DNA of 64,000 bases from Bilabrum cf. latius. Taxonomy: Eukaryota. The notes beneath the pieces were generated by a model that did no database searches, was not told the origin of the DNA, and saw only the letters and a program-made list of their open reading frames with translations. The stretch is taken from contig OZ237746.1 in the NCBI GenBank assembly GCA_965178125.1, positions 1-64,000 of the forward strand. Direction: 5' to 3'. A program made the position numbers and the translations under genes. Positions 8,571 through 63,510 of this stretch are shown here, piece after piece (positions within the stretch are counted from its first letter, which is position 1; each line of letters starts with the position of its first letter).

Positions 8571-10271
8571 TCATTCGGACCCACTCCTAGAGCCCCTCCT
8601 CTTGCGGCCCCCTTTCCCGACACCCGCCACCAAGCCCTCTGACCCCCTCTCCCCCCACCGCACGCGTCCCTCCTTGTCCATGCGGTCCTGCTCCTGCTGG
8701 TACCACTGCTCCATCGCGACCGACATCTGCTCCACGCTGCTCTCGCACAAAGCCACGGGCGCAGGCAGGATGCACATGCGGCCCAGCACCTTGCCCCACC
8801 GATCCGCGTCCTGGGCCGCCCACGTCTGCTGGTGCATCACGATGAACCCGTCCTTCTGCAAGTGCCGCAGGAAGCCCGGCCTGTCCTCGCCTACGTGCAC
8901 GTGCTGGTAGATGCACAGGTCCTCGCTGGGGTCGCACCACCTGTCCTCGCCCGCCCCCGCGTCATTGGGCGCGCTCAGCTCCTGCATGCCCCCCTCTGCC
9001 GGGCTGCGCTCCCCGGTGGGGGGCGAGGGGTCCGTCCCGTCCTCCCCCAGCCCGGTGGCCTGGTACCAGGGGAAGAAGAACGCCCTGGCCTCGGGTGATA
9101 GCCCCTGCCTGAGCCTCTTGCGGTGGGCCATGGCGGTGTTCTCGAAGTCCTGCAGCGGGTTGGTGAACCGCTGCTGCAGGCCAGCCACCATGCCGGCGGA
9201 CGGGGCCCGCTCGAAGTTGTCGTGGTCGAAGCCGCTGTTGGCCTTCCGGTACGTGTGCGCGGTGTCGAAGAGGGTCTTGTTCATGACCTTGAGCATCATC
9301 ACGAACCCGCTGAGGAACCAGGGCTGGTTGTACAGCAGGAAAGTGGGGATCTTGAGCAACAGGAACCACAGCCGCTGCAGCATCGTCTCCTGCGGATAGG
9401 CCTCCACGCGATCGGCCACGGCCTTGGCCAGGGCCTGCGAGTGTGTCGCCATGATGCCCCCTCCCATGGCAGTGGGCAGCTTGTCCTGGCCTCCAGAGTA
9501 CAGACTCACGTCTACGGATGGCTGCACGCGCCACCGGCTGTACGGCCCGCCCTGCACCGTGTCCTCTACGATGAGTGCACCTGCCCTGCGGTACGGCTCG
9601 CACCAGTCCATCCCGTACCTGACGCCAAACATGTGCGTGACTACTACCATGCCCACCTCGCTGGGCTCGGGGAGTGCTGAGATGCCACCGTTGCCATCTG
9701 GGACGACTAACCGCCACGATCCAGTGCAATCAGGGTTCACATCTAGGTCCATACTTATCAGCCGGGAAGGATCATCCTTGCAAGCGTTCTACATGACAGC
9801 CAAGAACCCATTCCTGTGCATAAGCGGAGACACAAGAATCTTTTTGCCCTTGCAAGACCATTTATGCCCATCGTTTACCGGTTTCGCAGCGGTTCCTTTC
9901 TTTTTATAGTCGCCTCCTTTCATCTCCTAGCTCGACGGAGACGAGGCGCCAGCGCTTCCGGCGAGACGAGAGTTCTTGCGCGGCAGGGTCTGAGCATCAG
10001 GCTGTTCGCTAGCCTCAGCTTCGTGCAATTCAGTCACAAGCGTATAGAATAGCGACCTGCATGTGTACCCATAAACTCCATGCCGTCCATCATCGTCGAA
10101 CTTGTGCAGCAGCTGGGGCTTTCCAAATATCAGTGATTGAACAGGCGCCCAAACGGCAAGCACAAAGTGGTACCAAAAGAACCACCAAGTCACGTGCAGA
10201 TAGGCTGGCACGGCAGCATGCGGGATCCATGGAGACTTGATCGCCTGCTCCTTGGCCTTGGAATCGGCCAT
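8571..10271 (-). CDS. PLP-dependent DegT/DnrJ/EryC1/StrS-like aminotransferase-fold protein
   Basis: Motifs VTHMFG, IVEDTVQG and YSGGQDKLPTAMGGG. ORFs 9927-10436 and 8571-9752 are in one frame, joined through two TAGs. Ends TGA. Confidence 0.7.
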
Positions 10272-10461
10272 GGAATTTCCGAATTGGGGTTTTCTTGGGT
10301 AGACGGGGAGCTGTGGTCTGGAAAACCTTAATCTATACGTTACTTTATTTTCGAGGCGTCCATGAAGCGGCCAAACGAGCACATTTGAGAGCCTTTCATC
10401 GGGGCAGCATTGGATCTGGATCAAAATAACACGCAAATTATGTGAGGCAGTTGCTGCTTAG

Positions 10462-11733
10462 TTATGCCCCAGCCCCGCACCCTTCGATCCCGCACACGCC
10501 CAGCCAGGGCGGGTCGAACCACGTGTGCCGATCGTCGCCCACCCAGGCTTGGAACGGCAGCACCTTGCCTCCAGGCCCGTCTGTGAGGTGCACGGACGCA
10601 TTGAACGCGTACCCGGTGGGCTCATACCCGGGCATCTGGATCGCAGGCACGGTTGTGTTGAGGCTCCCGTCCATAACCTGAGGGGGCAGCAGCCCTGCCC
10701 GCACCAGCGTGTGGACGTCCCGGGCGTAATACCCCACGGTGGCCTGCAGCTGCTTCTGCGCGTAGTACACGGCGGCCAGTGCCTGCCTTGCCCCCCACAC
10801 GCTGTCTCCTCGCCACTGGGCCTGCGCCTCGCTAGGGGGCTTGCTCGTGAACTGCAAGAAGCCCCACCGCTCGGGGAGATGCATGTTGATGGCCCCCTGC
10901 TCGCTCCACACCCAGTTGTGCTCAGGCATGTCGGGCACCTTGGACCAGTGGCACCGGACGCCCCGATCGATCTCGACCTCCGAGTCGCCTCCAGTGGCAG
11001 GCTGGTTCGGCTCGCCGCCGCAATCGCCAGCCTTCGTGACGTTCCATTCGACTCTGGAAAAGTCAAGCCTCCACTTTTCTCCTTCTCGAGGTGGCGCAGT
11101 GGCGATGCCGCTCTAGTTTGCGACATACCTCTCGAGCGGCAGGGCCAGCTCGACTTGCCAGCCTCTAGCTGGTCCGGCCAGCGGATCATCGAAAGGCCCA
11201 TCGGCCCAAGCAGCTGAACGAACCTACGGCTCTCCTCCGATGTTAATCGGCTGCCCCCCGTCCGCGTACGGCTTCGTGAGTGTGAGCCACCAAGTTGTGT
11301 TTATGACGTTCGCTTCCAGTTCTAGATAGTGTCGGGATGAGCCTGAGGGGTCGATGAATACCTCAAAATCATTATCAAGGAATACGACATCGTCATGCTG
11401 CGTTTGGTTTGCCCAGAGTGCGTCGTCTTGCAGGTCAGCTCCAACGTAAAGCCATTTTTCGTCCCATCTCATCTTTGCCCGCGTTCGGAAGTACGGGGGC
11501 TTCACCGCATCCCCCTGGATGTCAACAAATTCGGAAGTCCAAGGAGCGGCAGCCCATGCGGGGTCATCCAGTTTGCCGTCCATGCGTGGTGGCGCTTCGC
11601 CTGGCTGAATCTTGCTGACGACGTAGTGCTAAGGAAACGGGATCAGCCCCTTTGGGTAGCTAGCATGTGCCAATGACACAAGAATGTATCCAATGCTTAG
11701 CACATGAGCAGAGTGGAGCACCCAACTTCGCAT
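10462..11733 (-). CDS. Secreted carbohydrate-binding family 9-like (DOMON-like) protein
   Basis: Signal peptide MRSWVLH...AHA; motifs DGKLDDPAW, DNDFEVFIDP, WRLDFSRVEW, NWVWSEQGAINMHLPERWG. One frame with 3 TAGs. Ends TAA. Confidence 0.82.
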
Positions 11734-11926
11734 ATTTCTGCTGGTTGTGGCCTGTCGAAATTCCGATCATACTCCGGATGCTCTCAGATGCACTGAAACG
11801 TGAACAAACAAACGACCACCCGTTGGTTGTCAACCAAGCCACCATCACGTACTGCATACTTTCATGCTAGTGTCTCACTTATGCGTGCAACTGGTTCAAA
11901 TGATGATACGAACTGGTGTGCTCCCA

Positions 11927-13972
11927 TCAGTCTGCCTTCGCGGCAGGTCTCCTGCCAATTGCTGTTAGGCCAGGTTGTGCGACGGGACTCCCCGGCCCAG
12001 CCCCACTGCCAGCAGTGCTAGTGCTAGTGGAAGTCGAACCCCCTGGTCTCCCAGCTCCTACCCCGTTCATAGACGTCTATCCTCCCCAGCTCTGTTGCCC
12101 GTTTCCATTCGATGCACCCTGCGGGTGCGTGCCTGGAGTCCCTGCGTGCTACGGTGTTGGACTGCCCGCCGCTGCGCTGCCAGTGGTACTGACACCCACC
12201 CCTGCCAGTGGTGACCCTACAGCACTGCTCTACCCCGCTCCCTGGCCCAAACCGGATCCATGCCCGAAGCTGCCAGCTGGGGGGCGCCCACCGGCCGCGG
12301 CTGCTGGCTACGATTGTCTGGGACCCGGACCGGATGGCCTGGCCTGCTGTAGCCCTGTCGAAATCTTGCCTACCATACCAGAGAGCCCCTACGCAGCAGC
12401 TGCAGCCGCTCCTAGCGCAAACGCCCCGGCCCCCTTTCCCCTGCTACCTGGTTTCAGTCGCCTCCCCGCCTGTCCGACCGCGGCCCCGAACGCACCCAGC
12501 GCCCCCGCCGCTCCGCCCTTGCCCTTGACCCAGTTGGACAGCCCGAACACCCACGAGTCCAGCAGCCTTGCAACGGTGAACACGCCGCCCGCCACCGCAC
12601 ACAGCCCCACCAGCAGCTGCGCCAGCGGCTCCCTCCGCTCCTCCCGCCGCACCATGAACGGAGAAAAGTCGTATACGAAGAACACCCCCGGCAGCACCGC
12701 CTGCCGCACACCTTGCACGACCGCAGGCCTGAACTGCGTGGCCACGGAGAACTGGTTCGACTGCAGCGGCTCTCCGCCCAGTGGCTGGTAGAGAGTGGGC
12801 ACCAGCTTGATGTAGTACTGGTACACGCCGGCGCCCTCCTCCGGCAGCTGCACCACCTCCTCAAGGGGCGCGTGCATGCCTGGCAGGTCCTGCCCGAACC
12901 TGAGGTAGTGCACCGTGTGCGACACGTTGAATTTGGGTATGTCCTGCGGGTTGAACTGGTGGATGTGCCGCGAGTCCTGCACGTGGATCTCACCCAGCGC
13001 AGCGTTCAAGTTGCCTGCCACTTTGTTCACAAGCAAGTATCCCTGCAGGTTACAGCCCTCCCCTTCCTGGCTCTGCTCGGCCGGGTCTCGGCTCGAGGGC
13101 ACGTCCTTGCACTGGCTGGCGATCTTTGACACGGCCGCGGCATTCCATCCCTTGTCTACATAGGCGGCCTTGAGCTCTTCGCATGTGTTGCAGCACTTGC
13201 GAGACGCTGATTCCGCCCCGTAGCACGACTTGCAGTCACCTTCCTTGACGACCTTGAGCTCCTCGGCCTCCAGCGCGTCCTGCACCTCCCACGGCAAAAG
13301 ATGCGGAAAAGCAGGCGCCGCAGGGTGCAACGTGTTTTTACGCAGCCGTGTCTTGGTGATAACATGCTCATGTGTCTGCTACTGGTCCCCTGACACGTCC
13401 ATGGCATCCAAGTTGATCTCTGCGGTGGGAGGGCGAGCACATGGACGGGAGCAGCAATCGCCCACTCGTTAGCAGGACTGCCGCGTGGCAGTATCGGTAG
13501 CTCACTTTTGCAATTTAAGGCGTGGAATGATACATTAAAGTCTATCTTGAGCTTCTGGCCAAACGAGGGATCTACGACCATGTGGTCGTGAATTTCTATG
13601 GTCAAGTAGCGAGCTATCTCGGATAGAGTAAGGATTGCTACGACAGCCATCGACAATAAGCTCACTGCGAAATTTGAATGCACCTGAATAGTCCGTTGCA
13701 GCACAGTGTGGTGTTGAGGAAGACGCAGTTGGTGCCACGTGCATTCGAAGGCTGCCACCGCATCCTTCAAGTAGGCCCAGTAGCCAGTATTACCGCAGCA
13801 GTGCGAACTCACTGGCAGCACCCGATCTAGTCTATGTCCTCTCTACTTTCTTCAGTTTTGGAAACATGTCAACGCCCTTGAGCTACTGCACGATAGATGC
13901 CTGCTACGTTGGCCGAAGAGTGGTGGCTCCACCTGAGCTTCCAGCCTTGCGTCGCCTCATCCCAGAGCTCAT
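11927..13972 (-). CDS. ERGIC3: ER-Golgi intermediate compartment protein 3 (Erv46-like); introns approx. 13665-13812 and 13420-13505
   Basis: LKGVDMFPK, DAMDVSGDQ*Q, CKSCYGAE, CCNTCEE, EGCNLQGYLLVNKVAGN, PGVFFVYDFSP, CAVAGGVFTV. Multiple in-frame TAGs. Ends TGA. Confidence 0.92.
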
Positions 13973-14241: not shown

Positions 14242-15534
14242 ATGAGCAGAAAACTTGCAGTTGCTGCGGTGTGCATGGTAGCTTTGGTTTCAGCTGTACA
14301 GTCGCCCCAATCAAGTTATTAGACTGGAACGCTTCCAAATGGGTTAACAATGAGAGTCCCAGTTGATATTCCCGAGGAGCTTGCGAGTTTCCGAAGGGAA
14401 TAGTATCCCGGGCAGTAGCAGCAGGAGGGGATGCGGTTTGCAAGGACCTAGCATGATCAGGGCGTCAGGTTGAGTCGGCCAGAAGGTTCCTCAGGGATTC
14501 CAATCTATGGACCTACCGGATCCGGTGTGTACGGCAGTCAGGCCCTGCCTCCAGGTGTCTTGCAGCCGCTCGGGGCTGGCGGGTACGACATGCACGCATA
14601 CCCGGGGCTAGCCGGCCCAGCAGTCGGGGGTCTGGGGGGACAATATGGTGGCTTGACGGCCAGCAATACGGCTGCATGGGCCCGTGGGATGGGGGCGCAG
14701 CACGTGCTATCTTAGTTGAGCCAGCAGGACCCCGGCTTGGCGTGGGTGCAGCAGCAGCACCTGGTGCAGAAGGCCCACGTCTCGCAGGAGATCATCGCGC
14801 TGCAGAGGGAGGGCCTTCTTAGGCAGAGGGACGTGGCTGTTGCACAAGCAGCCGTGCACCAGGCCCAGCGCGTCCTGCAGCACGCCCAGGCCCTCCAGCG
14901 CGCGGTGTCAGACCGAGTGGCTGCCCTCAACAAGCAGATGACTGCCCTCGACCTGGCCCAGCGCAGGGCGGCAGACCAAGCGCAGCTGAGGGCGCTTACT
15001 GCAGCGCTGGCGGAGGCCAAGGCGGCCAATGAGGCGGTATCCGGCGCTTAGGCGGGCCACGAGGACCTGATCGCCCAGCTGGAGGCCAAAGCCAAGGAGG
15101 CCCGGGAGCGGGTGAGCAAGGCATCGGGGGACATTGGGAAGCTGCTGGGGGGCAAGGGGGACGAAGGGGGGAAGCAATATGAAGGTGGGCAGGATGCAGG
15201 GGCCGGCAGCGAAGCGGGAGGGGAGGCAGAGGGCGAGGGCGCCACGCTGCTAGCAGTGCATTCAGGTGCGGGTAGCGGGACAGTGCAGGCAGCTGCAGCT
15301 GCAGCTGCAGCGGGCCAGTCTGCGACAGACAGCGTGCAACGCGTCGACTCCGGCGAAAGGCTAGGCAGGTCCAGCGGATAGAAATCATAGGAAACACCGG
15401 TGCATGCCGGGGCGGCGCTGGATGGCCACAGGGGGCGACTTGCGAAGGGTTCAGCAGAGAACAGCTAGGTTGAGGGGGAGAGCAGGAAAGCTTCTTTGGG
15501 GCTGCGTGGATCTGGTCACGGGCACGCTTCATGA
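14242..15534 (+). CDS. Hypothetical secreted Gln/Ala-rich coiled-coil protein
   Basis: Signal-like MSRKLAVAAVCMVALVSA. Three same-frame ORF fragments joined by TAGs, including CAG TAG CAG CAG at 14413. Ends TGA. Alternative in-frame ATG at 14227. Confidence 0.72.
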
Positions 15535-15617: not shown

Positions 15618-15977
15618 TCAGACTCTCGCCCGCTTGCTGGGCCCGCCCGCCCCTCGGCCCCGGTGCATGGCCAGCGCCTGCCCTGCCGCGCTCTCCCCCC
15701 TGCTCTGCCATTTGCGGCCCCCCATCACGGCCGCAGACGGTAGCTCACCTCGCCCCTGCATCCCCGTTCCTGCCCCCGCCCCCGATCCCGGGAGCGGAGA
15801 CCCGCCCCCGCTCAGCCCAGGCACCCTGCTCCCGTCCCACGCCTCCCGCATGGACACTGGCACTGCCTCGTCTAGCACTGCCAGTGCCCTGCATGTGAGC
15901 CTCAAGAGTGACACATCAATGGAGTCCGGCAATCGGAGGTGCAGCCACACGCGGAAGCTGGCTGCCTCGGACTGCTA

Positions 15978-16029
<52 letters not shown>

Positions 16030-18044
16030 GCGCTGGAACTGCTCGTGGTGCTACTTCCAAGCACAGGGCCAGCACTCGTCACAGCAATCCGCTCCAACAC
16101 AGCAACGCCAATACAGGGGCGGTGCCAGGCGGGCTGGCGGGGACTCGCGGCAGCAGCCCGTGCTACTGCAGGCGCGGGCCGGCTGTATGCAAGCCCCTCC
16201 GCCGCCCCTGCCGCCGCGTGGGCCAGGTCACGCCCATCCACCGGCCCCAGGCTCTCGGTGCGGCCGAATGCACCATCCCCTGCGGCCCCTACATCTGCAT
16301 CGGGAGCGCCCAGCAGAGCCACGAACCTACCGACGCAGGCCCTCCACGGGGCCAGCACGGCAGGCCCCCAGTAGGGCTCCCTGGGGGCCAGCAGGGAGAC
16401 ACCGCTGGCCGGCACTCTCACCTCGCGGCGGCCCCTGAGCAGACCCGCTGGGCTGCACGGACCCCTCCTTGGGTGCAGCAAGGCTCCGGGAGAGTGCCGG
16501 AAGCGCTGCAGTGGGGTGCACAAAGCATCGCCCATGGCTGCGTCACCTGCTAGTCGATCCGCACGCGGCCAAACGGCATCGTCCGGTCCCATCCCCGCAT
16601 GGGGGTCCATCCAAGGGGCCCTCGCTTTCGGCATTGAGTGCAGTAACAGCTGGATCCAGCGGACACTCCTTCCCACTGCAGCAGAGGGCCGCGTGAGTCC
16701 AGTGCCCTCGGGCTCATCCGGTTTTCTCGACGCAGCGGTGGTACCGGGACTCGGGCTGCTGCCGTACGTTAGCGCTGTGGAAGAACCGTCTGTGCCTTTG
16801 CTCCCCGAGTCTTCGTTCGTCTCTAGTCGAGCCGCCATTACAGCTGCCCTTACCTTTTTTACAGCTGCCTGCGCCGTTTCGAGGTCCAGATGCTCCCATG
16901 GCCCCCCTTTGTAGACCAGCGGCCCCCTGTCCGGCACACCGGGGGGAAGCACACGGAGCGGCCGCTTTGGAGCAGAGCTGCCGGATGCGCTGGCTGATGC
17001 CCCGTGGGCCCCCAGTGTCATCACACTCGTCACACCAAGCTCGGCACAAATGGCTCTCAGGGTCATCAGACCGGCCCCCTTGACCCAACCACAGGTATTC
17101 ACGACAAGCAGAGGACGAGGGGTCGGGGCCCTACTTGCGCTGCTTCCGGCCCGACCACAGCCGGCACCCTCTCCAGCGCTGGCCCATGCCGCTGCCTCCG
17201 TTTCTAGTAGGCGCCTCATGGCGCGACCTGCTGCCGCACAGCAAGCCACAAATCCGCGGGGGTCAGCCTCTGGAGACGTGGCCCCGTAGGCGAAGCAGAC
17301 GGACCCACGCGGGCTTGTCATGGGTCGGGCCCCGTCGCAGCACGCGGGCGGCTCGAGCAGCCAGGGGAGCTGGATACCGCCTGCAAGATGGGACGATGGG
17401 ACCCCTTCAGCATCGGGTGTGCCGCTTGTCATTGGCAGCCTCGCAGTTGTGGCCTCGGACCGGGCAACTGCGCCGCACACCAGCCCGGGCCCCCCCAGCA
17501 GGGACTGACCCACGTCGCAGTCCAGGAGGGCCAATGGGCGGGCCGGGCGAGCTGCGGGGCCCGGCACTGAACTTGCAGCAGCTACTGGCTGACTGCCTGA
17601 TCCAGCCGCATTCATCAGCAGCGTTGCCAGCGTGCTCTTGCCGGAGCCCTGGGGCCCGACTACAGCGACTACATCGACATCGCGTGCCGGACTGGTCGTG
17701 GGGCTACCACCAGAGCCCCACAAAACAGTTTCTAAACCCAAGCTCCACGAGGATGGCAGGACTATCGACTGTGTGGTCGATTTCCAGGCAGACAAGGTTT
17801 TCGGGCTGTATGATGAATGCTTCGGGACAGCAAACTTCGCGAACTGCAGCACTGCACCATCGCCCCCAGCAGATAGGACTGGCTTAAGCTGCCACAGAGG
17901 AACGTCAAACGCTACAGGTGCAGCCTGGAGCAACTGGAACGCATTCACCGATGCAGATCCGTCAACCAAAGTGACAAAGCCGTGCGGCACAGGCAGTGGT
18001 ATCGTCTCATGCGGGGCAAGTGTTACAGAATTTATATATGGCAT
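15618..18044 (-). CDS. NOL9: Polynucleotide 5'-hydroxyl kinase, NOL9/Grc3 (Clp1-family P-loop)
   Basis: VVGPQGSGKST, LLDCDVGQS..GPG, LVVNTCGWVKGAG. TAG at 15975 is read through into same-frame ORF 15618-15950. Ends TGA. Confidence 0.85.
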
Positions 18045-18202: not shown

Positions 18203-19581
18203 ATGGCATCTTAGAGCGCAGCATCCAGACTTGCTGGTAGATAGGATGATGATGATCTTGATTACGAGCTTGGATTAGGAACGGCTTCACAGGTATCGGT
18301 GGCCTAGGGCGATGGCACGAAACAAAGCGGGTCGAAAAGCAGCACGAGTGCATCATCGTCTGCTGCCAGATCGAACCTGGAAGATATGCTTGAGGATGAA
18401 GATTTTGGAATTAATACGGGTGGTACTGCCGGGAGGTCCACGGACCCTGCTCGCGGGCACGTTTCGAAGAGCGATGACGATGTCCTCGACGACTTGTTGC
18501 GAGCAGCCGGGCGTGATGATGCCGTGGCTAGCAGCGCGATGCGTGGCGGTACAGAATCAAGTGATGGATCTAGCCTGGGCCGACTAGGGGACGGATCTTC
18601 TGCTGCCGAAGACAGCGTATCGCTGGACGGCAGCATGAGCATGGGGTTCTCAACCGATATGGACACGTCGGGGCTGGAAGGTGACGACGACATGCTGGGG
18701 GTGTCTCCTGCCATGGCTATCTGCGAGCCTGATCCTCGCGTCGAGGTACTGGAGCGAGCCATAGAGCGCGAAAAAGTGAGCAACGGCCGGTCCGCCAGTG
18801 CGCGACGGCGCCCGAGTTTGGATGCTTTATAGCACACCCTGCCACCATTGCGTCCATTCGCTGCAACTGCATCCAATTGTCCCCCCTTTGACTTTAATAC
18901 CACCGCATTCCCACCTCCCAACCCGTACCCTTCCCCTCCCCTCCCTCCCCTCCCTCCCTGGACTTCCTGCAGTCGTGCCCCGAAGTGCTCCCCTACGAGG
19001 ACGAGCTCATCGAGTCCCTGGGGAACAAGCTGGACAGGGAGGAGGCCTTCCTCTCATCCAGCGCATCGAGACACCTGGACCCCCTGTTGAGAGAGCTCAG
19101 GGAACACGACTCGCACAGGGGCAGGTATCAGCTTGCCACATATGCCAGGGTCAGGCTGTGCAAGCTGCGTGGACAGCTCTTCTACCTGGCCTCTCACGAG
19201 GACGTGTGCGAGGCTAGACTCAGCGGGGCAGAGCACAGGTTCGTCAAGGACGCCTACCTGGCGCTGTCCAAGCATCTCCGGGGTTCAGTGCTGCAGCACC
19301 TGAGGGGCCGGCTGTCCCAGGTCAAGGACCCGCGGCTGGCCAGGGGCCCGCGGGTGGACAGGTATGTGACCGTGCGGTGCGAGGAGTCGGTGGGGCCCGT
19401 TCCGCTAGATCCCGCGGGGGGTTCTGGCCCTGGATCCGCGGAGAGTGGCATGCCCAGGGTACTGTCCTCGCAGCAGGACGAGGAGGAAAAGGACGCCTCG
19501 TTCGACGAGGGGACCGTGTACATCGTCCGGTATGACAAGGTGCGGTCATTGATCCACTCGGGCAAGTTGTAGTTGATATAA
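18203..19581 (+). CDS. GINS4: GINS complex subunit SLD5; intron 18776-18972
   Basis: EK|SCPEVLPYE, YQLATYARVRLCKL, P.VDRYVTVRC, YIVRYDKVRSLIHSGKL*LI-TAA. Acidic N-terminal extension contains 3 TAGs. Confidence 0.9.
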
Positions 19582-21364: not shown

Positions 21365-22714
21365 TCACCCCACCTGCACGGGCCAGACCCCCCTGATGGG
21401 GAAGTCGTTGCCCTTGGTGGCGGCCATGACTAGCTTCTCGTGGGCATGCGCCACCTTGCCCTTGACCAGCCTGCAGTAGATCAGGTTGGCCAGCACGCAC
21501 TCCACCTCCCCGATGGTCAGGTCCCTTCCCGCCCACTTGAAGGCGGCCTGCACTGCCTTGAGCGGCACCAGCCTCGCCTTTGCCTTTAGCTCGCCCGCCG
21601 CATAGGCACACCTCCTCACCAGGTTGCGCTGCACCAGCAGCAGGGCCCTCTCCACCAGCAAGTAGGTACCCAGCTTGAAGTGCTCTGCCTGGGTGGCCGA
21701 CAGCTCGGCCTCGAACCGCCCCAGGTGCCCCGCCCTGAAGGCCTCCAGCAGAGGACCGTACAGCGCGTCCAGCCCGTGCTCCCGCAGGAGGGCGCCAGAG
21801 GGGAGCATGCCCAGGTGCAGTCGCACGGGCACTAGCATGGTCAGGATCTTGCGGGCGTTCCCCGGGTGCCTGCCCCTGCACGCCTCCCAGGCCCTCGTCA
21901 GCGACTGGTTCGCCTGCTTGCAGTCCTCCTCCAGGGCCAGGCAGCTGCCGCGGAAGTAGTGAAACTCCGCCACGATGCCCGGGGCGAATTCCCGCTCGAT
22001 GTCGTACGGAAAACGAGTCTTACTCTCGAGCGGATCGAGCGCGCTGCGGCACTGTTTGAGCTACGAGAGCCTAAAGTAGGTGCGCAGCATGAGCACTGCC
22101 AGGTAGAATCCGGTGCGCTTCTTGCTGCGGTCCAAGTCTGCCATGCGGTGCATGATGCACGCCATGAAGGCGCGCCGCAACAAGGGAATGGTTGTTTCAA
22201 GCATTCGCTTGGATACCATAAAATCAAGGCGACGTTCTGGAGACTCGCCTGCCCCGCTCGAAGCACCAATGGCGGCCCTCCCTCGCTTGCGCTGCCTCGG
22301 AGGGAAGCCCTGCGCGATTCGAACGCAATCACGAGCCACCCCCGCAAGCACAGGTCCAAATGAATTGTCAGGAGCAGATTCAAAGGCTCCAAGGGTGGCC
22401 TCAAGGGCTACCTGGTGCCGACCAAATGCGGCTACCGCGTTGCCATCGCTATCGTGCTTGGCGGCTTCGGCAGCCATGCGGGCAACGTTTCGCCACGGAG
22501 GCTTCAGCTTCGAGCGAATTGCAGTGGCCATGCCCCCGCCAGCCATAGATGCAAGCTCGTGCAACGGCCGGCCGGCTGTGCTCCTAGCCGGTTCGAGCTC
22601 TAGGAGGCCCCGGAGACTGTCCCCATCCTCCGCTGCGATAGCCCTCTGCAGGCCCGAGAGCCACTCTTTAACATCTTCTGGTACGTTTGCTGCCGACCCT
22701 GATCGTTTCAGCAT
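21365..22714 (-). CDS. PCID2: PCI-domain protein PCID2/CSN12/Thp1-like
   Basis: SKKRTGFYLAVLMLRTYFRLS*LKQC, FHYFRG, NARKILTMLVPVRLHLGMLP, EVECVLANLIYCRLVKGKVAH. Two ORFs joined by TAG at 22061. Confidence 0.88.
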
Positions 22715-26288: not shown

Positions 26289-28019
26289 TCAGTGGCTTGG
26301 ACTCTTGGTCTATGCGTGGCTAGCTCCTGCCCTTGCACCTGCACCTGCTCCCGCCCTTGCCCCTGCAGCGGACTACCGTGCAGCAGCAGCAGCAGCAGCA
26401 GGCGCAGTGGCTGTGGCAGACGCCGGCGCAGATGATGACGATGACGATGACGATGACGATGAAGATGAGGCCGGTCCACCGCGGGCCATGGCCTCCTCTG
26501 CGATCTCCCCTTCCCACAACCCCGCCCCCGCCCCCGCCCCCGCCCCGTTCTGCATGGCGGGCATCGCCTCCGAGTCCATCAGGGCAGCGAGGGCGGCTCC
26601 CGGCACGGCGGGCCTCAGGTGCCTGGGTTTGCCCTGCAGCGCCCTCAGCTGCTCAACGGATAGCCCAGCATACTGGTCTCCGATAAATATGGGGGACATG
26701 ACGGCCGCGGGCACACCGGGGGCGGAAGGCGCCCCTCCTCTCGCCGAGGAAGATGACACCATCGACGATGCTCCGCCGCTCAATGCAGTGGCTGGGCGCG
26801 TGGTGGAAGCCGCCACCAATGCGGGCAGGTGCTGCCGAGAAGGTGACGGCCCAGCGGACCCGAGTCCTGGCGAGCCAAGCCCCGGTCCATGTCCATGCGA
26901 CTGCACGGCAGCTGGGCGGCTTGCAGCGGCAGGAAACGGCGGCGGCGACGAGAACTACGGCACTCCCGCAACGGGGTCCACCGGGTTGCACCCAGCCGCG
27001 GCCGCGGCTGCACCGTGCACCTGGGCCAACCCTGCAGGGCCGGAAGCTGCACCGTGCACCTGGGCCAACCCTGCAGGGCCGGAAGCTGCACCGTGCACCT
27101 GGGCCAACCCTGCAGGGCCGGAAGCTGCACCGTGCACCTGGGCCAACCTTGCAGGGCCGGAAGCTGCACCGTGCACCTGGGCCAACCCTGCAGGGCCGGA
27201 AGCTGCACCGTGCACCTGGGCCAACCCTGCAGGGCCGGAAGCTGGCCGCGGTTTGGCGGCACCCCCGTTGCTGCCTCTAGCCCCCTTTCTCACCTGGATC
27301 TCTCCGAGAGACTCTCTGCTGATGGCCATGGAGATGGCCGCCTAGAGGGCCTGGGGCATCAGCTGGCTCCCGTGCTTGGTCTGGATGTGGTGCACCAAGG
27401 AGTGCTGCCTGATGTAAATCTTGTCGCACACTGGGCATTTCCCACCGTCTCCCTTGCCGTGCGTCACGAGCAGGTGCCTTTCCAGAAGCTCCTTGCGAGC
27501 GAAGTGCTTCACACACCCAGGCTCAGTGCAGTGCTGCCTGGTGCCCATACCGTGTTTGGAGTTGATGTGTCGCCGGTAGTGCTCCTTTCGTTTGAACTCA
27601 CGCGGAGGCTAGCAAAGCGTGCAAGTACGATCCTCGGCGTCACCATCTAGTCTAGGCTTCTTGTTGCTGCGAGAAGAGGCTTCCTGCTCGTCGCCTGCAG
27701 GATCCCTCTTTCGTTTCGGCTTGCTCTGTTGCGGTCCCCACGAATCTCCTGGTTGCGCATGCACGCCAGGCGTAGCGGTTGCACTAGCGTACAAAGTATC
27801 ACCAGCTGTACTTCGGTCCGACTTCTTTGCATTTACCGCAGCTGCAGCAGCCGCAGCTGCCGCAGCCGCGGCTGCGCTTCCGTCTGCAGCAGCCCGAGGT
27901 GTAGGATCCCGGGCGGCTTGCCGAGAAGCACCTCTCGCGCCACTCCCAACACTCGCACCTTGCAATCCCACTAGGTGCGCATTGTGTTCATCGTTCAGAT
28001 ATGTGCCAATGGAGTTCAT
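26289..28019 (-). CDS. C2H2 zinc-finger protein (3 fingers) with low-complexity tail
   Basis: CTLC*PPREFKRKEHYRRHINSKH, CTEPGC..FARKELLERHLLVTH, CPVCDKIYIRQHSLVHHIQTKH. Four same-frame ORFs joined by TAGs. Ends TGA. Start uncertain. Confidence 0.82.
27007..27244. repeat. Coding 39-bp tandem repeat x6 (13-aa unit AQVHGAASGPAGL)
   Basis: GCTGCACCGTGCACCTGGGCCAACCCTGCAGGGCCGGAA at 27007, 27046 and onward. Confidence 0.95.
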
Positions 28020-37500: not shown

Positions 37501-39537
37501 TCAATATCGCCTATACCCACCCTGTCCGTACGCTTCGCCCCGCGGCCCAGGTGCACCACCACCATACTGCCCACGATAGTCCTGCTGCATCTAGCCGCCC
37601 ATGTGCATGGCTGGAGGCCGACCCCCTCCTCCTCCCGGTGCTCCCAGCAAGCTACCCCCTGGTGATGCAGGGGCAACATGCCCCCCGTGCTAGTCGGGTC
37701 CCCGCCCGTACCCATGCCCGTATCCACTACCCTGGCTGTGCCCTGCCGGCGGTGGGTAGCCCCCGGGGCCGGGCCCGTATCCTTGAGCCTGACCACGGCT
37801 GGATACAGGACCGTATGCTTGAGCCTCTGCGCGGGTACCGGGCCCTGGGTGCGGATACGCAGGGTGTGGAGGCGGCCCATGCCCATGCCCATGTCCATGC
37901 AAGGGACCAAGCCCAGCCCCAGGTCTGGGCCCAAGAGACACGGTGCCTAAGCCTGCCTGGCTGGGGCCCCACCGTGACCCGCCGCGGGTGGATGGAGAGG
38001 GGAGGGGCGGGCCTGCACTGGGCTTGTCTGGATTCCATGGCTACTCCGAAGATGACGATGATGATGCCGCGGACCCGGCATTGGCTACACCAGCTGCATG
38101 GGCCACGGGAGGCGAGCCTGGGGGAGTCCCCGGGGGAACGTGGTTGCTGCTGGGGCCCGTGTCTCCTGCTCGACTGGTGGAAGCGCTGCTCACTGATGGG
38201 CCGGTCTCTGCGCGGCGCCTATTCCTGGCCATGTTCCGCAGCTCAGCGGCCTCTTGCCTGTAAGCTGCCACCTGCCTCAGCGCACCCATCGCCTCGGTGC
38301 ACCGCTGCTGGTCCCCCGCCGCCAGCTCCTCCTCCCCCTCCAGTCTGCGCCTCACCCTCGGCACCGCCTCCTGGCATGCCCTCTCCACGGCCCTCAACCG
38401 CCTGAGGTGCCTCTGCAGCATCGAGAGCAGGTGCTCCTCGGGGAGGGCGGGGGGAACAGCGCCACCGGACGGGACCGGCTGCTCTGTGCTGGCCTGAGGC
38501 TGGGCACCATTACCAGGCACCACCAGCACCTTGTTCAGTTCCTCACCCTTGCCCCCCCCCGCTTGCTCCACCAGCACTGCAGCCCTCTCCGCGAGCGCCG
38601 CCCCCTCGTCCACATCCGCCAGTGACTCGAGGCCCAAAGAGGTCTCCGCTGCATCTAGGGCCCGCACAGACGCCAAGAGAGCCATGAGCTCCCCCTCATC
38701 GTCTCCCACGCCCACCGGCAGCGCCACACTCCCCTCCCCAGTGGCATTCAGCGCCTCCCCCGCCCCCGCCCCGCCCCCCCCCACGTTCTCCTCCCTCTCC
38801 CACCGCCGCAGCAGGCCAGCCAGGGGACCGTCCTGTGCTCCCACACCGGGGAGCCCCCTCCGTGGTGGAGACAAACCGTCGTGATCATCATGCTCGTCCC
38901 GCCCCCGCTTGCGCCCCGCCAGTGCAGGGGACCCACCCGCCGAACCGAAATCGCTGCTGCTTCGAGTCGCTTCCCCAGAGTCGGGGCCCGCTGGCCCAGC
39001 GTCGATTTCATCCCCGCCAATGTTGAGCCCCAGCTCGGCCCCCAGGTCCAGCGCGGCCTCCACCGCGTCCTCCGTCGCAGCCTCGATGTCCAGGCCGGTG
39101 CCTGCGCCCAGCTGCAAGGGCCTCGGCTCTTCGTTGCCAGCGGCGATACCGTCCAGGCGCTCCGTCAACTTGTGGGGCAGAATATTCCGCTGTTTCCAAA
39201 TCCCGAGCACTCGCAGGACGCGGTTCGACAGGTCGGATCCCCCACTCTTGGTTGCTTCAAAGACGCCAGTCTGGATCGCCAAAGGAAGACCAGCCTCCAG
39301 ATTTGAGTCTGGTCCTTGCCCAGCCGCCCGGACCTAAACGACATCATTCATCAAATAAAATAGCGGAAGCTTCTAGGTCGGCGCGGTCTTTGCGAAAACC
39401 TTGGACCACACGCCAGGGAATGCTTTGAACGTGTTTGCACTGGCCAGAATAGCTGCACGTGCTCGCATAATGCCAGCCTGCGTGCCATCCAGGACTGCAA
39501 GGATGCTCTCAACTCTTTGAACATATTTATCGCTCAT
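37501..39537 (-). CDS. CID (RNA Pol II CTD-interacting) domain protein, RPRD/Rtt103-like, with Gly/Tyr/Pro-rich tail
   Basis: LDGTQAGI, *KLPLFYLMNDVV*, RVLGIWKQRNIL. Several TAGs in frame. Ends TGA. Confidence 0.85.
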
Positions 39538-39683: not shown

Positions 39684-42600
39684 ATGGCGGTCGCCTCGTT
39701 GGATGGCGAAGGGGTACTAATGGATAAGCTTCCATTGCTCCAGAACTCCATCAAACGCGATCCCGAGGCATATGTGGATGAATTCCGCCTGCAAGTGAGG
39801 ACTGCAATTGCAGGTGCAACCGGTTGTTTCTTGGTCTGGCATGCACGGAGCCCGCGTAGCTCAAGAATAAATGTAGTCAATTCGGTGTTGAACTATTGCC
39901 CAATTCATAATTTCTCTCGCAGCATCGGCATTTCCTTGCCCAGCTTCGATTGCTCGAGCTGAACCCATCCCAAGACGCCGAGACCTTCTGCGCGCTTGCT
40001 CAGTTTCTTGCGCACGTTGCACCGTGCTTTCCCAAGGATCTAGCGGAGCTTCCCGATTAGCTCTTGAACCTGCTTAAAACGCACGCAAGAGCACTGCACG
40101 CCGAGACGAGGCGTGTAGTTGCCCAATCTCTCATGCTGCTCCGTTCCCGCAACATGATCCCACCGGTGCCTCTGCTGCCCACGTGCCTAAATCTTCTGGC
40201 GGTACCAGATAAGCCTCTCAGGACGCTATTGAGTGCGTTCGTTGTGCACGACGTTCGGTCGATCCATCGCTCCGGCCGGCAGCCCCGGCTGAACCGTGCC
40301 TTGATCGCAGTCATCGAGGCCCGGCTGCGCGCGGCGGACGAGAACCCGTCTGCGACGAGGCGCTCGCTGGGCATACTGGTGGACCTGTACCGCCGCCGCA
40401 TCTGGGTGGACGAGCGTGCGGTGAACGTGATCGCTCAGGCGTGCCTGTGCAAGCCCACGCGCGTGGCAGTGGCGGGGGCCCGCTTCTTCCTGGGAGTGGC
40501 TGACGAGGACGGGGAGGAAGAGGAGGACAGCGACGTGGATGACGACGAAGACGCGGCTGCAGGGGCCATGAGCGTGGTCAGCGGCAGGCACAGCAAGGCA
40601 GTCAAAGGGAGGACACCTGCTGGGGGAGGGTCTGGCTCAGGCCCCTCTGTGCCTGACGGGATGCTGCCCCACCAGCACAGCAAAAAAACGAGAAAGAGGA
40701 AGAGGAGGATCGAGCGAGCTGCAAGCGCCGCCCGTCTGTCCCGCTCCCGCACGGACCCCAGCACGCAGGCGGAGCAGGCCATGCTGGCCATGACCCCTGC
40801 CTTGGACATGCTGCACGACCCCCATGGGCTGGCCGAGGGCCTGCTCAAGAGAGTGCGGTCCAGCAAGGACAGATTCGAGGTGCGACTGCTGCTGCTGAAC
40901 CTGTGCACGCGGCTCGTGGGGCACCACCAGCTGATGCTGCCCCCGCTCTACTCCTTCCTGGCCAGATACCTGCAGCCGCACCAGAGGGGTGTCACCCACC
41001 TGCTGGCATACCTGGCCCAGGCCACCCACCCCCTCGTGCCCCCCTCGGACCTGCTGCCCGTTGGCAGGGCCATCGCAGATGCATTTGTGGCGGAGCGGTC
41101 CCCGGGGGAGGCCATGGCCGTGGGGATATCCGCCCTCCGGACGCTGTGCCAGAGGCAGCCGCTGCTGCTGCAGGAGGCTGCCCTCCGGCCCATCGTGGAG
41201 GAGCTGGTGCAGCTGCGGAGGGAGACGAGGGACAGGTCTGTCTCGGCGGCGGCCAGGGCCTTCGTGAACCTGGTGCGGGAGACATCTCCGGAGCTGCTGC
41301 GGGGCCGGGACAGGGGCAGGTTCGCGCAGCTGGGCAGGGCGCCCCTCGTGTACGGAGAGCGGTCCTCGGGGAGGGCGGGGGCGGGGCTGGAGGGGGTGGA
41401 GCTGCTGGAGGTGCTGGGCCTGCTGGACGAGCAGGTGCAGGCCGGCAAGGGCAAGTCAAAGGGAAGCCGGGGAGAAGACGGGGATGAGGATGATGACGAT
41501 GGGGAGGTGGCCAAGGAGGGTGGAGGCAGCAAGGGCGCCTCGTCTGCCTCTGCAGCTGCTTCCAAGGGCAGGTCTATGCAGGGTGTGATGGCCGAAGCCA
41601 TGCCCTCATCTGGGACAGGGGCCAAGGGCACGAGTGGTACCCAGGGGGAGGGTGATGATGACGACGACGAGGATGAGGACGAGGAGGACGATGTCAAGTT
41701 CGAGATCATTGGCGCTTCGTCTTCCAGCTCCTCTTCTGCGGCTGCGTCCTCGTCGTCGTCTTCGTCCTCTGCATCTGCAGGTGCCATCAAGGAGGACTGG
41801 AGCTCAAAGGGAGGGAGGGGGAAGCACAAGCACAGGGAGGGGTCCGGCGTGGACACGTCTCGGGAGGACGAGGAGGCGGAGGGCAAGGAGGCGAGGCTGG
41901 AGGGGTACGGGAGCGATGATGAGGAGGAGGACTGGGCCATCGTTAGGGAGGCCGTGGGGATGTAGGAGGAAGACATGTTTGATGACGAGGATGAAGATGA
42001 AGATGAAGAGGAGGAAGAACAGGCAGAGGCCGAGGGTGGAGATGAGGCAGAGGAAGAGGAAACCTCCCAGGCGCAGGGGGGTGCTGCAGCGGCTGAGGAA
42101 GAAGCCAGCGGTTCAGCTGCTATGGAAGACGGTGAGGGAGGTGAAGACAAGGAAGAAGCAGAGGCGAAGCCCCTGCCCGACCCATCCGCGGCCCAATCGA
42201 TCGTCTCGAGGCGCCCCCTCTCCCAGCGCGAGATCATGCGGCTCAGGATGCTCCGGAGGCTGGCTCTGCAGGCACACGCGCAGGCCACCGGCATGCAGGC
42301 AGCAGCGGAGAGGGCGGAGCGCAGGGCAGCCAAGTTCGCGGGGCGCAGGGGGAAGCGCGCCTCCGACAGCAACGGTGCGAGCCAGTCCCTGTCCCGGATG
42401 GTCAAGGGGGTGGACGTGGGGCAGGCCATGGCCCGGCTTGCCAGGGCCATCAGGGAGTCCCAGGCGGCGAGGGGGGCGGCGGGGACAGACGCGGTGGATG
42501 CGGATGATACGGATGACGAGGGTGCGGCGGCGGGGGCTGCCACAGTGGACCCTCGTGCGCTGGAGAGCGACCGTGCGAGGAAGAAGAGGAGGATCCTGAT

Positions 42601-42850
42601 GCGGTCCGAGAGGCTGGAGAGGGACAAGAAGGAGGCTGCGGCCGAGAGGACCGGGGCCAGGGCGCGGGCGGGAGGCAGCACTAACACTGAGAAGCGGCGC
42701 AAGAAGAACTTTATGATGGTGACCAAGAGCAGGGGCGTGTACGACAAGATCAGGGGGCAGCTGGACGAGCAGCACAAGGCCGTCAAGAAGCACATCAGGC
42801 ATCTGAAGAACGTGGGAAAGCAAACCACAAGGAAGAGGAGGAGAGCCTGA
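39684..42850 (+). CDS. SDAD1: Protein SDA1 (60S ribosome biogenesis); intron 39795-39922
   Basis: LQNSIKRDPEAYVDEFRLQ, LHDPHGLAE, YLQPHQRGVT, PELLRGRDRG, GGSTNTEKRRKKNFMM. N- and C-terminal domains joined through TAGs at 40058 and 41963. Ends TGA. Confidence 0.93.
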
Positions 42851-54501: not shown

Positions 54502-55779
54502 ATGAGCTGTGATTGCTGTCGATGCTTTGGTCGCTTAGCGCCGGAGGAGTAGTTTCGTAGATAGCTTATACACTTGGAAGCGAGTAAACGCAACTTGCGC
54601 GTCCGATCCGAAAGCTTGGCAGCAATCCAGACCTGGATAATGATTGCAGGGTATGCTTCATTCATTTGCATACCCGCCCTGTATTTGGTGTTGCTGTTTG
54701 GATTGAAACGCTTTGATGCTGCCTAGTACAAGATACTGTCGTTCTCCCTCTGGGTTGTTGGCAGCTTTTCTTGCTGGCTAGCATACAAAGGAATCGACTG
54801 GTTTCAGGGTAATGTGTCCAGATGGACCGAATAGGCTGAAGAGAAGCGGCAAGCAGTTCTACTTCAGGTCAAGGAAGAGCTACCACTCCGGCTCGCCAGC
54901 ACGTTGCTCTAGCACTTCGACCCCGATGGAAACCACAATTACGTGGTGGAGGACCCAAGGACTGCGGCCACGCTGCGCACAGTGCAGCAGGAGGAGCAGG
55001 CGCTGCTGCAATGCATCAACTAGTTAGCATATGAAATGCATCAGCGGGTGGGCGAGCACGCGGCTCGGGATGTGTTCTCCCGAGTGGGTCCCCTGGTGAA
55101 CCCCTTCATGTCCAGGCTGCCTGCCGTGCAGGCGCTCCGGGGGAACACGTTCGGGGCGCGGGCCATGAGGTTCGTGGCGGGAGCTGCCGTGGGGGATGAT
55201 GATGATGATGGAGGGCAGGGCAACGTGCCTGCCACGGTGGCAGCCAGGCCCCGTGGTGCGGATCGTATCTTGGCCGCGCGTGAGGGTGAGGATGGGGCTG
55301 GGGCACGGGGGCAGGGACGGGGGCTGGGGGCTGCCACGGCGCCACCGGCAAAGGGCGGTGCGGTGGGACTGGATAGGCGTGGCGGGAGACAGGCCGATGC
55401 CGATGGACAAGGAGCTGGCCGAAGGGGGAGCGAGGGCGGGCGTGGGCACGAGGTTGAAGCAGGGTGCGACGAGAGCAGCGGGACCAGTGGAGGCGGGCAG
55501 AGCGAGGGCCTGGGGTCCAGAGGCACGCCTACCAAAGGGGATGCGTGGGGCAGCGGGGCCAGGCAGCCCCGCCGGGCGCTGTCCTTCGGGAGGGGGGCAG
55601 ACTCCGGGGGGGGGGGCAAAGAAGGGGTTGCCAGCGAGGGGGGCACTCCTCCCTTGGGGAACACAGATTCGAGGGAGGGAAAGAAAGGGCTGGATGACGG
55701 GAGCGACGACACGGAGGAAGACCCAGCTGAACACTCGGAATCGAAATCAGCGGGTGGTGACAGCAAGAAAGACCGTTGA
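54502..55779 (+). CDS. Lunapark-like ER membrane protein (two TMs plus coiled coil; no C-terminal zinc ribbon seen)
   Basis: Single frame with 6 TAGs in the first 175 codons. Two TMs, then KRQAVLLQVKEELPLRLASTLL*HFDPD, resembling Lunapark ...AKLILERFDPD. Ends TGA. Confidence 0.6.
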
Positions 55780-61158: not shown

Positions 61159-61233
61159 TATTTGGCTAGATCTAGTTTTGCTTGCTTTCTCGCCGTGTTG
61201 GATACCCATAGATCCATACGTGTACTGTTCGAA

Positions 61234-63510
61234 TTACTGGATCCTTCTCAACCTCACCATGCACAACCCAGACATGCCCGAGTCCAGTGGTGTGGCCCGC
61301 AGCATCCCGGGCACATCCTCGCTGGGCACCAGTTTAGGCACCGCTGGCACACCTGCCTCCCGTCCCCCTTTACTTCCAGTCGCACTCCCGCTCTGCTGCA
61401 GGGCCCTCAGCTCCAGGGGCTCTATCTGCAGGACCATGCCTTGTTCCTTAGCCCGCTACAGGACCCACTGTACCACACCCTCATTCTGGCTCCGAGTCAG
61501 GGAACACGTGGCGTACACGACCACGCCCCCCGTCCGGGTCAAACGCACCCCCTGCAGCAGCAGATCCCGCTGCAGCCGCACCAAAGCGGGAGCGGGAGCA
61601 TCTTGTGCATCCTGCACACCGTGTGAGATTGCATGCCCACCAGCGGATGATGTCACATCCTGCACACCGTGTGAGATTGCATGCCCACCAGCGGATGATG
61701 TCACATCCTGCACACCGTGTGAGATTGCATGCCCACCAGCGGATGATGTCACATCCTGCACACCGTGTGAGATTGCATGCCCACCAGCGGATGATGTCAC
61801 ATCCTGCACACCGTGTGAGATTGCATGCCCACCAGCGGATGATGTCACATCCTGCACACCGTGTGAGATTGCATGCCCACCAGCGGATGATGTCACATCC
61901 AGCGACAGAGGTGCGCAGGCCTCGGCAGTTGCGCCACTCTGGTTCGTTGCCCCTGACTATGCGCCAGCAGAGGCAGAGGCCGCACTACTCGTGGCCTCCC
62001 CTTCCTCCTCCCCTGGCAGCCCCGTCCCCGCTAGCACTGCAGGCGCGAACTTGTCCCAGCCCCATGCGTGATACTTTGCCAGGTGTCGGATAGACCCGTC
62101 CGTGCTGCAGGGGGCGTCCACCAGCACGCGGTCGTACTTCCCTTGGTGACACGACGAGGTGCATGCTGGCTCTACCGATGGGTGAGCCTGGGGGTGGGAG
62201 GGCACCATGGCAGGGGCAGGGGCAGGGACAGGGACAGGGACAGGGGCAGGGGCAGGGGCAGGGGCAGATGATGAAATACTACGCCCCTGAGGCGCCGTGG
62301 CGATCCCGAATGGCTCAGGTTGGCCGGCAGATGGCTTGCTAGACGAGTGCGGGTGCTCCGTGGCTGTCGATCCTCCCCCGGCATGGTTGCGTGCCAGCCC
62401 CAGCCCCGCCTCCATGGCCCACGCGGGCTCCTGCAGCCAGGCCACAGGCACTCTGCCGCCCTTCTCCAGCGCACCCGGCCGCCGCCGGATCGCGGCCAGT
62501 CGACTGCTGTCCATCGCGACTCTCGTGTGACGAGTGCCATCCACCGGAGGGGGTCTCTACTTGCCCTTTTCCTTCTTCTGTTTCTTTGACTCGCCAGCAT
62601 GCTGCGCACCCCTGCCCCCAGCGCCCTACCCGGTTCCTCCGGATCCAACTCCGGCTCTGCTGCCGCGCGATGCTCCAGCCTCAATTCTGGCCGCAGCCCT
62701 GGATCTCTTACCCCCAAGACGAGAATCTCTCCCCGATTCAGCCTTCATGCCTTCGTGCCCCTCCTCGTGCCCCTCCTCCTTCTCCTTCTCCTCGCGCCCG
62801 TCTGGCCCCGCCCAGCGCGGATCCTCGTCAAAGAACCGCCCGTCTGCTTCCACTAGGCGCACTCTCCAGTGGCCTCGCGCAATTCCAGGCCCCGCGAGCC
62901 CCGCTCGCCGAGCCAGCCCAGCCGCAATCTGCAGCCGATGCGCGCGGACGTCCACGCCAGTGAGCGAGCCGTGCCGACACATCAGGTCGCCAAGCAGAGC
63001 AAGTTTGCTGCCAGGGGCGCAGCAAAGGTCCAGCACGGAAGGGCCTCGTTCCATGTCCAGAGCTGCATCCGGCTCCCCCACTCCCAGCGCCAGGGCTGCT
63101 AAAATTGAGGATGCGTCGATGCCGTGAAGAGCGCCTGCAGCATACAAAGGAGACCGCTGCAGAGCAACGTCTCCAGGCAGTTGAAACACCCAATTTGCCC
63201 ATGCAACACTACTGGCTAACTGTGCTCCTGCAGTTTCCGGGCCATTCGAGCCCTCCGATGATGTGGACGGCAGCGAAGCACCAATAGAAGCAGGTGGTAG
63301 GGGGCCAATATCACCTGGCGCAGCTGAGTTGGGATGGAACGGACTCAGGCGAGAGTACCGAGCCAGCTCATTCGGTGGGATTTCGTAAATTTTTGTATTC
63401 ACGCCTTCCCGTCTTGCCCAGCTCAGGAACTCCGCCGGTAGGTGGTCACGCACTGCACCTCCACCACTGGTGTGCAGCTTTGATATACCGAATTTAAACG
63501 AATCAGACAT
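61234..63510 (-). CDS. RsmB/NOL1/NOP2/Sun-family RNA m5C methyltransferase
   Basis: GIDASS, VLDLCCAPGSK, YDRVLVDAPCSTDG, GGVVVYATCSLTRSQNEGVV, SGLCMVRLRR. Four ORFs joined by TAGs. Ends TAA. Confidence 0.88.
61608..61900. repeat. Coding 48-bp tandem repeat x6 (16-aa unit DVTSSAGGHAISHGVQ)
   Basis: CATCCTGCACACCGTGTGAGATTGCATGCCCACCAGCGGATGATGTCA at 61608, 61656 and onward. Confidence 0.95.

Follow-up and report, generated by a model that had tools for sequence, protein, structure and literature searches.

Nuclear genetic codes in which UAG alone is read as glutamine have been recorded for Hartmannula sinica, Trochilia petrani, Protocruzia tuzeti and Iotanema spirale, and the wider UAR code, in which UAA is glutamine as well, is used by Tetrahymena, Oxytricha, Ulvophyceae, Hexamita, Streblomastix and Amoeboaphelidium (PMC11687900, in the sections drawn on here). 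For Iotanema, a T32G change in the GTS motif of eRF1 was proposed (PMC5304391, PMC9161772), and the tRNA was not obtainable according to the excerpted text of Panek et al. (PMC5304391). For the marine grazer Cafeteria, the only non-standard code named in the excerpted parts of PMC6972860 is that of the mitochondrion, where UGA is tryptophan. Here, we examine the first 64,000 nucleotides of contig OZ237746.1 (forward strand; assembly GCA_965178125.1, Bilabrum cf. latius), hereafter the window, in which TAG recurs inside reading frames. A preliminary description, made from the letters alone, proposed genome-wide reassignment of UAG to glutamine; reassignment is shown for the window and for one 7.3 kb ortholog contig, and beyond these the genome-wide reach is a supposition. 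With a probability of roughly 85%, UAG is a third glutamine codon, and UAA and UGA terminate, in the nuclear genome of a Cafeteria-related heterotrophic stramenopile (probably a bicosoecid). In-frame TAG is not confined to this organism: one related species or more has it too, as seen in the ortholog contig L001.

The window begins at a chromosome end, with CCCTAA telomeric repeats at 1-753, and has a GC content of 61.5% overall and 62.7% past 7.7 kb, in agreement with the TTAGGG telomeres and GC-rich DNA described before. Satellites extend to ~8.4 kb; beyond them, genes are tightly packed with few short introns, and third-codon-position GC reaches 72% in nine genes. Twenty-six coding segments (14,296 codons), two of them the exons of SLD5, were delimited by codon-usage scores, Pfam matches and RNA joints; about eight gene models were drawn from codon usage alone and have no homolog support. 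The segments hold 77 TAG, 485 CAG and 83 CAA codons, and TAG occurs in 23 of the 26. Additional exons of ERGIC3 (exon 1, three TAG), a thioredoxin gene (exon 1, one) and a glycoside hydrolase gene (one) bring the total to 82 in-frame TAG in 24 of 26 genes, the TAG-free spliced gene at 25367-26100 being counted among the 26; the earlier figure had been more than 20 genes. TAG makes up ~12% of glutamine codons in the window. When it is taken as sense, fragments merge into long frames, and the TAGs lie within or next to Pfam domains (CBM9_1, COPIIcoated_ERV, CLP1_P, SLD5_C, zf-C2H2, DnaJ, CID, SDA1_HEAT, SDA1_C, RsmB and a glycoside hydrolase). The segments are bounded by TAA or TGA, so the lack of either codon inside them is partly built in; frames of up to 1,727 codons contain neither, and off-frame readings of the same DNA average 174 TGA, 31 TAA and 78 TAG per frame. 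A comparison of open reading frame coverage was uninformative, with TGA as sense covering as many bases as TAG as sense in this GC-rich DNA.

Independent sequence data bear on whether the TAGs are miscalls, introns or edited sites. Seven sequencing runs, from three studies and under three organism labels, contain at least half of the sampled words of 8600-18500, and ten others (X8-X17) contain small shares; identical sequence under three labels suggests one strain in mixed cultures. Four of these runs (X1, X5, X6 and X7) were compared with the window over 8400-28300. Contigs of X5, X6 and X7 skip the two GT..AG introns of the ERGIC3 gene (13420-13505 and 13665-13812, minus strand), which the DNA run X1 retains; they also skip plus-strand introns near 24125-24212, 25471-25567 and 25678-25771, and they begin and end close to gene ends. 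From these joints and contig limits we infer that X5-X7 are spliced transcripts; no run is recorded as RNA, and X5 was automatically classed as "probably DNA". Their contigs show no changed letters and no indels over the compared region. Of the 35 TAGs of this region, 21 are covered, among the matches listed, by RNA pieces that match without a difference and have their ends 31 bases or more away; the other 14 fall outside the RNA pieces among the same matches. X1, possibly the run from which the assembly itself was made, covers 33 of the 35 with pieces free of differences. Joined along the observed splice joints, the ERGIC3 frame runs from its Met to a TGA through nine TAG, with no TAA or TGA in between. 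The preliminary description had proposed transcripts as a check on editing or splicing. Repair of the message, whether by U-to-C editing of TAG to CAG or by removal of tiny introns, gains some room from the comparison of assembled contigs only, which lose rare variants, but the spliced contigs, drawn from three runs and two studies, have no changes, gaps or joints at the 21 covered TAGs, and we consider such repair very improbable. UAG persists in mature mRNA at the consensus level, in spliced contigs from two further studies, and TAG is neither miscall, intron nor edit.

Four genes of the window have syntenic orthologs on L001:

8571..10268, minus strand: gene without Pfam match; TAG at 9929 and 9791; lies inside RNA contigs of X5, X6 and X7; the L001 ortholog matches at 68% over 522 residues, and X1 has diverged paralogous pieces on other contigs.
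10462..11733, minus strand: CBM9-like gene; TAG at 11631, 11226 and 11115; ends in TAA; the closest homologs of its protein (~40-46%) come from metagenomes, marine animals and bacteria alike.
11927..13968, minus strand: ERGIC3 gene in three exons; nine TAG in the spliced frame; ends in TGA; the protein has a low-complexity C-terminal tail of ~200 residues (window 11927-12524; L001 3310-3997), longer in L001 and lacking from the Cafeteria protein.
14242..15534, plus strand: gene without Pfam match; nine TAG; ends in TGA.

L001 is a metagenome contig of 7,294 bases with ~71% nucleotide identity to the window, and all four of its orthologs carry in-frame TAG, mostly at positions other than the window's. 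Codons of the four genes were paired with TAG scored neutrally as X, and sites were taken as well aligned when at least 9 of 14 flanking residues were identical. At these sites, TAG faces a glutamine codon in 11 of 16 cases (CAG 8, CAA 3; binomial 1e-10 against an assumed 6% background). The control codon CAG faces CAG, CAA or TAG in 48 of 68, which is the same rate (Fisher p=1.0 for a difference). TAG 9791 faces CAG, all 14 of its flanking residues being identical (9929 pairs with GAA in a poor alignment), those at 11631, 11226 and 11115 face CGT, CAA and CAG, and in the 14242..15534 gene L001 shows TAG at window CAG or CAA positions. In ERGIC3 exon 1, compared by eye, one TAG faces Q, one faces R and two are TAG in both species. 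In L001, TAG accounts for roughly 19% of glutamine codons, a count that includes some frame upstream of starts, and GC is 54.8%; the higher share in the lower-GC contig fits a synonymous codon following base composition. The 1,037 bases of contig L017 match L001 without a difference, and this contig does not count as independent evidence; L019 (56%) has no in-frame TAG in its ERGIC3 piece. These data also speak to the idea that the genes are pseudogenes or that CAG was systematically miscalled as TAG, which is favored only by the prior rarity of code changes. TAGs are found again in independent DNA and RNA assemblies and, at other positions, in a species ~29% divergent in DNA; core genes that are transcribed and correctly spliced (SDA1, SLD5 and PCID2) have internal TAG only, never TGA or TAA; and the compared region is free of indels. 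This explanation therefore receives almost no weight, and the earlier rejection of pseudogenes is upheld by the ortholog codon pairs and unedited spliced transcripts, together with the homolog columns and profile decode that follow.

More distant homologs and domain matches identify further TAG-bearing genes:

15618..18041, minus strand: CLP1 P-loop gene, putatively NOL9-like; TAG at 15977.
18203..19581, plus strand: SLD5/GINS4 gene in two exons (probable intron 18776-18972); four TAG, the last at 19570; ends in TAA.
21365..22714, minus strand: PCID2 gene, identified from solved structures; TAG at 22063; inside an X5 RNA contig.
Near 23980-25233, plus strand: thioredoxin-domain gene with TAG in frame.
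26289..28016, minus strand: C2H2 zinc-finger gene; five TAG.
Near 32693-33712, plus strand: glycoside hydrolase gene with TAG in frame.
36664..37371, plus strand: second exon of a J-domain gene; TAG at 36721 and 37003.
37501..39537, minus strand: CID-domain gene; five TAG, including 39336 and 39375.
39911..42850, plus strand: main exon of the SDA1 gene; TAG at 40058 and 41963; TGA past the SDA1_C domain.
54502..55779, plus strand: membrane-protein gene without Pfam match, which we take to be Lunapark-like; six TAG.
61234..63510, minus strand: RsmB/NSUN-type methyltransferase gene; four TAG; ends in TAA.

Five sites had been singled out in the preliminary description as diagnostic for glutamine, and all five are in-frame TAG at the coordinates given there: SLD5 19570 (plus strand), CID 39336-39334 (minus), J-domain 36721 (plus), ERGIC3 13381-13379 (minus) and the run CAG TAG CAG CAG from 14413. 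Three of them do face glutamine in homologs. The ERGIC3 column at 13381 is Q in 107 of 118 homologs, SLD5 19570 corresponds to Q in human GINS4, and CID 39336 faces the Q of RPRD1A/B (39375 faces R). The other two are not diagnostic: the J-domain site faces K, K, S, S and K in the five alignments shown, and the poly-Q stretch is not conserved in L001. At SDA1 40058, Q is the commonest residue (Q 32, E 17 and L 10 of 89 homologs). Among close relatives, P0001, 96% identical to the CBM9-like protein, covers two of the TAG sites (11226 and 11115) and shows Q at each. P0122 and P0242, near-identical to the window's ERGIC3, start past TAG 13381 and end exactly at TAG 12391; the gene caller of that collection thus treats TAG as a stop, and the glutamines of P0001 are therefore probably encoded by CAG or CAA. 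P0001 and P0242 are both listed on a 4,589-base contig. Two other relatives, P0146 (90%, ERGIC3) and P0346 (47%, membrane protein), are partial and start or end mid-gene, as expected if they were cut at TAG.

Several observations weigh against the assignment of glutamine or limit the evidence for it. The remaining 5 of the 16 well-aligned ortholog sites face AGG, CGT, ACT, TCG and GCC (R, R, T, S and A), and without the flank filter only 14 of 34 aligned sites face CAG or CAA, two being shared TAG, with the rest falling mainly in low-complexity tails. SLD5 19570 is K in one other structure. The CBM9 columns at the TAGs are R/K (49/49), G (83) and mostly gap; the J-domain column is K/S; PCID2 22063 is K in human PCID2; the NSUN columns are E/D; SDA1 gives E/H/E in solved structures; and four aligned sites in P0346 are D, D, Q and M. 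The transcript contigs are consensus sequences that lose minority edits. The distant CBM9, J-domain, PCID2 and NSUN homologs are not diagnostic of the residue, and in these proteins even genuine CAG codons frequently fall opposite non-glutamine columns. The two Arg codons, and the K/R or E found in several distant columns, are what could commend a different sense meaning of UAG (Arg, Lys, Glu, Leu, Tyr, Trp or pyrrolysine); yet 11 of the 16 ortholog sites face glutamine codons and none faces Tyr, Trp, Leu or Lys. A Codetta-like decode, using profiles from distant homologs only, was performed on just 14 well-aligned TAG sites (window and L001) in three families, two of the sites being one column in both species. 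It returned Q at 0.977, with R at 0.011 and K at 0.010. The eight control codons all came out right, and of 1000 random sets of 14 CAG/CAA sites, 999 returned Q. Another amino acid is accordingly highly unlikely.

The same genes indicate what ends translation. Twenty-five of the 26 segments end at a stop (21 TGA, 4 TAA), with TAA closing the SLD5, CBM9, QPRTase and NSUN frames. In SLD5, TAA directly follows the last conserved residue, and TAG 19570 lies three codons earlier. The CBM9-like gene ends with TAA in the window and TGA in L001, and both ERGIC3 and the 14242 gene end with TGA in the two species; the ERGIC3 proteins both finish in KAD-TGA past divergent tails of ~200-260 residues that hold 5 and 6 TAG. 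In the glycoside hydrolase, SDA1 and PCID2 genes, TGA falls shortly past the domains, and the TAA or TGA codons that immediately precede the SDA1, DnaJ and SLD5 frames belong to GT..AG introns. Both UAA and UGA still end translation. Two broader codes were tried and rejected: the ciliate-type UAR code, given no in-frame TAA against ~31 per off frame and TAA at the end of SLD5, and a context-dependent code with all stops as sense, given no internal UGA or UAA in aligned genes and a sense TAG near the end of SLD5.

A dual role for UAG, mostly glutamine but still a terminator at some ends, or leaky reading in which eRF1 competes with a suppressor or near-cognate tRNA, was weighed on the same evidence. 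None of about eight homology-anchored gene ends is TAG, as seen for SLD5, CBM9, ERGIC3, the 14242 gene, the glycoside hydrolase, PCID2 and SDA1. A rule based on distance to the end is contradicted by SLD5, whose TAG at three codons from the stop is aligned with a conserved Q; no fixed base context follows TAG (G30, C20, A16, T11); and leaky reading would be very costly with nine TAGs per ERGIC3 message. On the other side, only those eight or so ends are anchored, TAG is rarer than CAG, and several genes without homologs have TAG 7-14 codons ahead of TGA, where true ends are not fixable. Genes without homologs have no fixed ends and leave room for a residual stop role, but overall a dual reading appears unlikely, and UAG as a full glutamine codon is preferred. 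The TAG-bearing genes that mostly have no homolog support are as follows:

19912-21120, plus strand.
28405-29331, minus strand.
29962-32433, plus strand.
33955-35262, minus strand.
35704-36210, minus strand.
43319-45574, plus strand.
45681-50864, minus strand.
55897-58965, minus strand.
59182-61158, plus strand.

The source organism was placed with two single-gene trees. Cafeteria roenbergensis is the best named match of ERGIC3 (55%) as well as of SDA1 (40%). Trees were built from 57 of 120 ERGIC3 matches (59 rows) and 48 of 89 SDA1 matches (49 rows, quick search), with rows picked for rank and names, and with the near-identical P0122 and the partial P0146 left out. In the ERGIC3 tree, the window and L001 group together (support 100/100), are sister to a five-row Cafeteria clade (99/82) and fall within a nine-row clade (100/99); the EukProt record adjoining the latter is presumably Halocafeteria. 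In the SDA1 tree, the window lies within the named-stramenopile clade (Shimodaira-Hasegawa-like approximate likelihood ratio test, SH-aLRT, 99), where it and Cafeteria belong to one unresolved group (93). Two features tell against reading too much into this placement: the SDA1 branch of the window is long and compositionally deviant, and few named heterotrophic stramenopiles are present in either tree. As judged from these sequences, the organism is probably a bicosoecid-like heterotrophic stramenopile outside the Cafeteria clade, and the earlier remark that it does not look like a ciliate agrees with its grouping with Cafeteria in both trees. ERGIC3 is full length in five Cafeteria-side relatives and in P0134, with 17-20 Q each, and the chance of zero TAG at 12% usage is ~0.08-0.11 for each. 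As a sign of a standard code in those relatives this is weak, because standard-code callers favor such proteins.

By analogy with published cases, a tRNA-Gln(CUA), one base from tRNA-Gln(CUG), would read UAG and not UAA, and eRF1 would have lost most UAG recognition, as proposed for Iotanema. CAG-to-TAG transitions would then be silent and could spread. The reassignment would have occurred on the branch leading to the organism and L001, once the Cafeteria clade had separated. The only RNA gene detected by ARAGORN and Rfam in the whole window is tRNA-Ala(AGC) at 28304-28376, with no tRNA bearing a CUA anticodon; no rRNA gene lies in the window, and neither the window nor L001 showed a gene for eRF1. 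With spliced transcripts, a telomere-containing assembly and an annotated standard-code relative at hand, the predicted tRNA and eRF1 change are directly checkable.

The rest of the window includes one gene without TAG:

25367-26100, plus strand: three-exon gene with introns seen in RNA contigs; the translation presumably belongs to a small ARF-family GTPase.

The terminal 1-8361 contains a 22-bp satellite (204 copies, 761-5248), a 155-bp unit (11.7 copies, 5283-7093), a second, internal telomeric tract (7154-7608) and a 53-bp unit in 11 copies. An exact tandem duplication of 298 bases (29316-29912) lies between two divergently transcribed genes, and at 33676-33858 a 45-bp unit in 4.1 copies repeats the final codons and TGA stop of the glycoside hydrolase gene. 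About 3.3 kb at 50940-54200 have lower GC (54-57%) and no convincing coding frame, and four candidate frames there gave no Pfam match. Many genes of the window carry long Gly/Ala/Ser-rich inserts. The QPRTase, queried against viral contigs, gave no match.

In the literature searched, supplements being outside the search, no nuclear code change was found for a stramenopile, only mitochondrial ones; the excerpted texts of PMC11412368, PMC6723347, PMC12152300 and PMC12153298 likewise yield, for stramenopiles, mitochondrial changes only. The preliminary description had suggested an undescribed independent origin. The type of code is published for other lineages, and in that sense it is not undescribed; an independent origin is plausible. 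On balance, we favor the view that this is the first nuclear code variant in Stramenopiles and the second UAG-only glutamine code outside ciliates, common to several species that together form the sister group of Cafeteria (with relatives at 96-99% and 84% protein identity and perhaps one at 90%) and arisen in a genome that is GC-rich and terminates at UGA, not in one that is AT-rich and terminates at UAA. Those who deposited the 2025 runs may already be aware of the code. Standard gene callers cut proteins of this clade at TAG, as in P0122 and P0242, so the clade is under-annotated in databases. Nuclear codes that split UAA from UAG are rare, and a case beside Cafeteria, if true, adds an independent origin and a tractable pair with cultured, standard-code Cafeteria in which to study how UAG becomes uncoupled from UAA through eRF1 and tRNA. 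It would also suit asking whether recoding alters susceptibility to giant viruses: Cafeteria hosts CroV and mavirus (PMC6972860), and in the excerpted 2026 catalogue confirmed giant-virus isolates all come from standard-code hosts (PMC13524828), which makes a recoded Cafeteria relative worth examining as a host.

Compared with described systems, the features of a UAG-only glutamine code of the Iotanema type on which these data bear are found here; as to the loss of UAG as a terminator, no TAG stands among about eight anchored gene ends. The genetic code 15 of crAss-like phages also has TAG as glutamine and TAA and TGA as stops, but it works with bacterial RF1/RF2, an unrelated machinery (PMC9523058, in part). 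UAR systems share UAG as glutamine; UAA is glutamine there as well, whereas it is never in frame here (PMC11687900). Cafeteria roenbergensis/burkhardae, the nearest named relative, is likewise GC-rich with few introns (PMC6972860, in part). It differs in that its ERGIC3 (440 residues, 17 Q) and SDA1 (880 residues, 23 Q) are annotated full length. In three UAG-only ciliates, UAG is sense in 78-91% of genes, similar to 24 of 26 here, but the phyllopharyngeans among them have UAA as a fixed preferred stop, in contrast to the mostly UGA-terminated genes of this GC-rich stramenopile (PMC11687900, in part). A GC-rich genome with UGA-dominated termination is indeed unlike the published UAG-only cases, which favor UAA. 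The closest parallel is Iotanema spirale (Fornicata), a non-ciliate in which UAG alone is glutamine and which has a close standard-code relative, Euthynema, as this organism apparently has in Cafeteria; it belongs to another supergroup, is anaerobic and uses UAA as its primary stop, where the window has TGA at 21 of 25 ends and TAA at 4 (PMC5304391, PMC9161772, in part).

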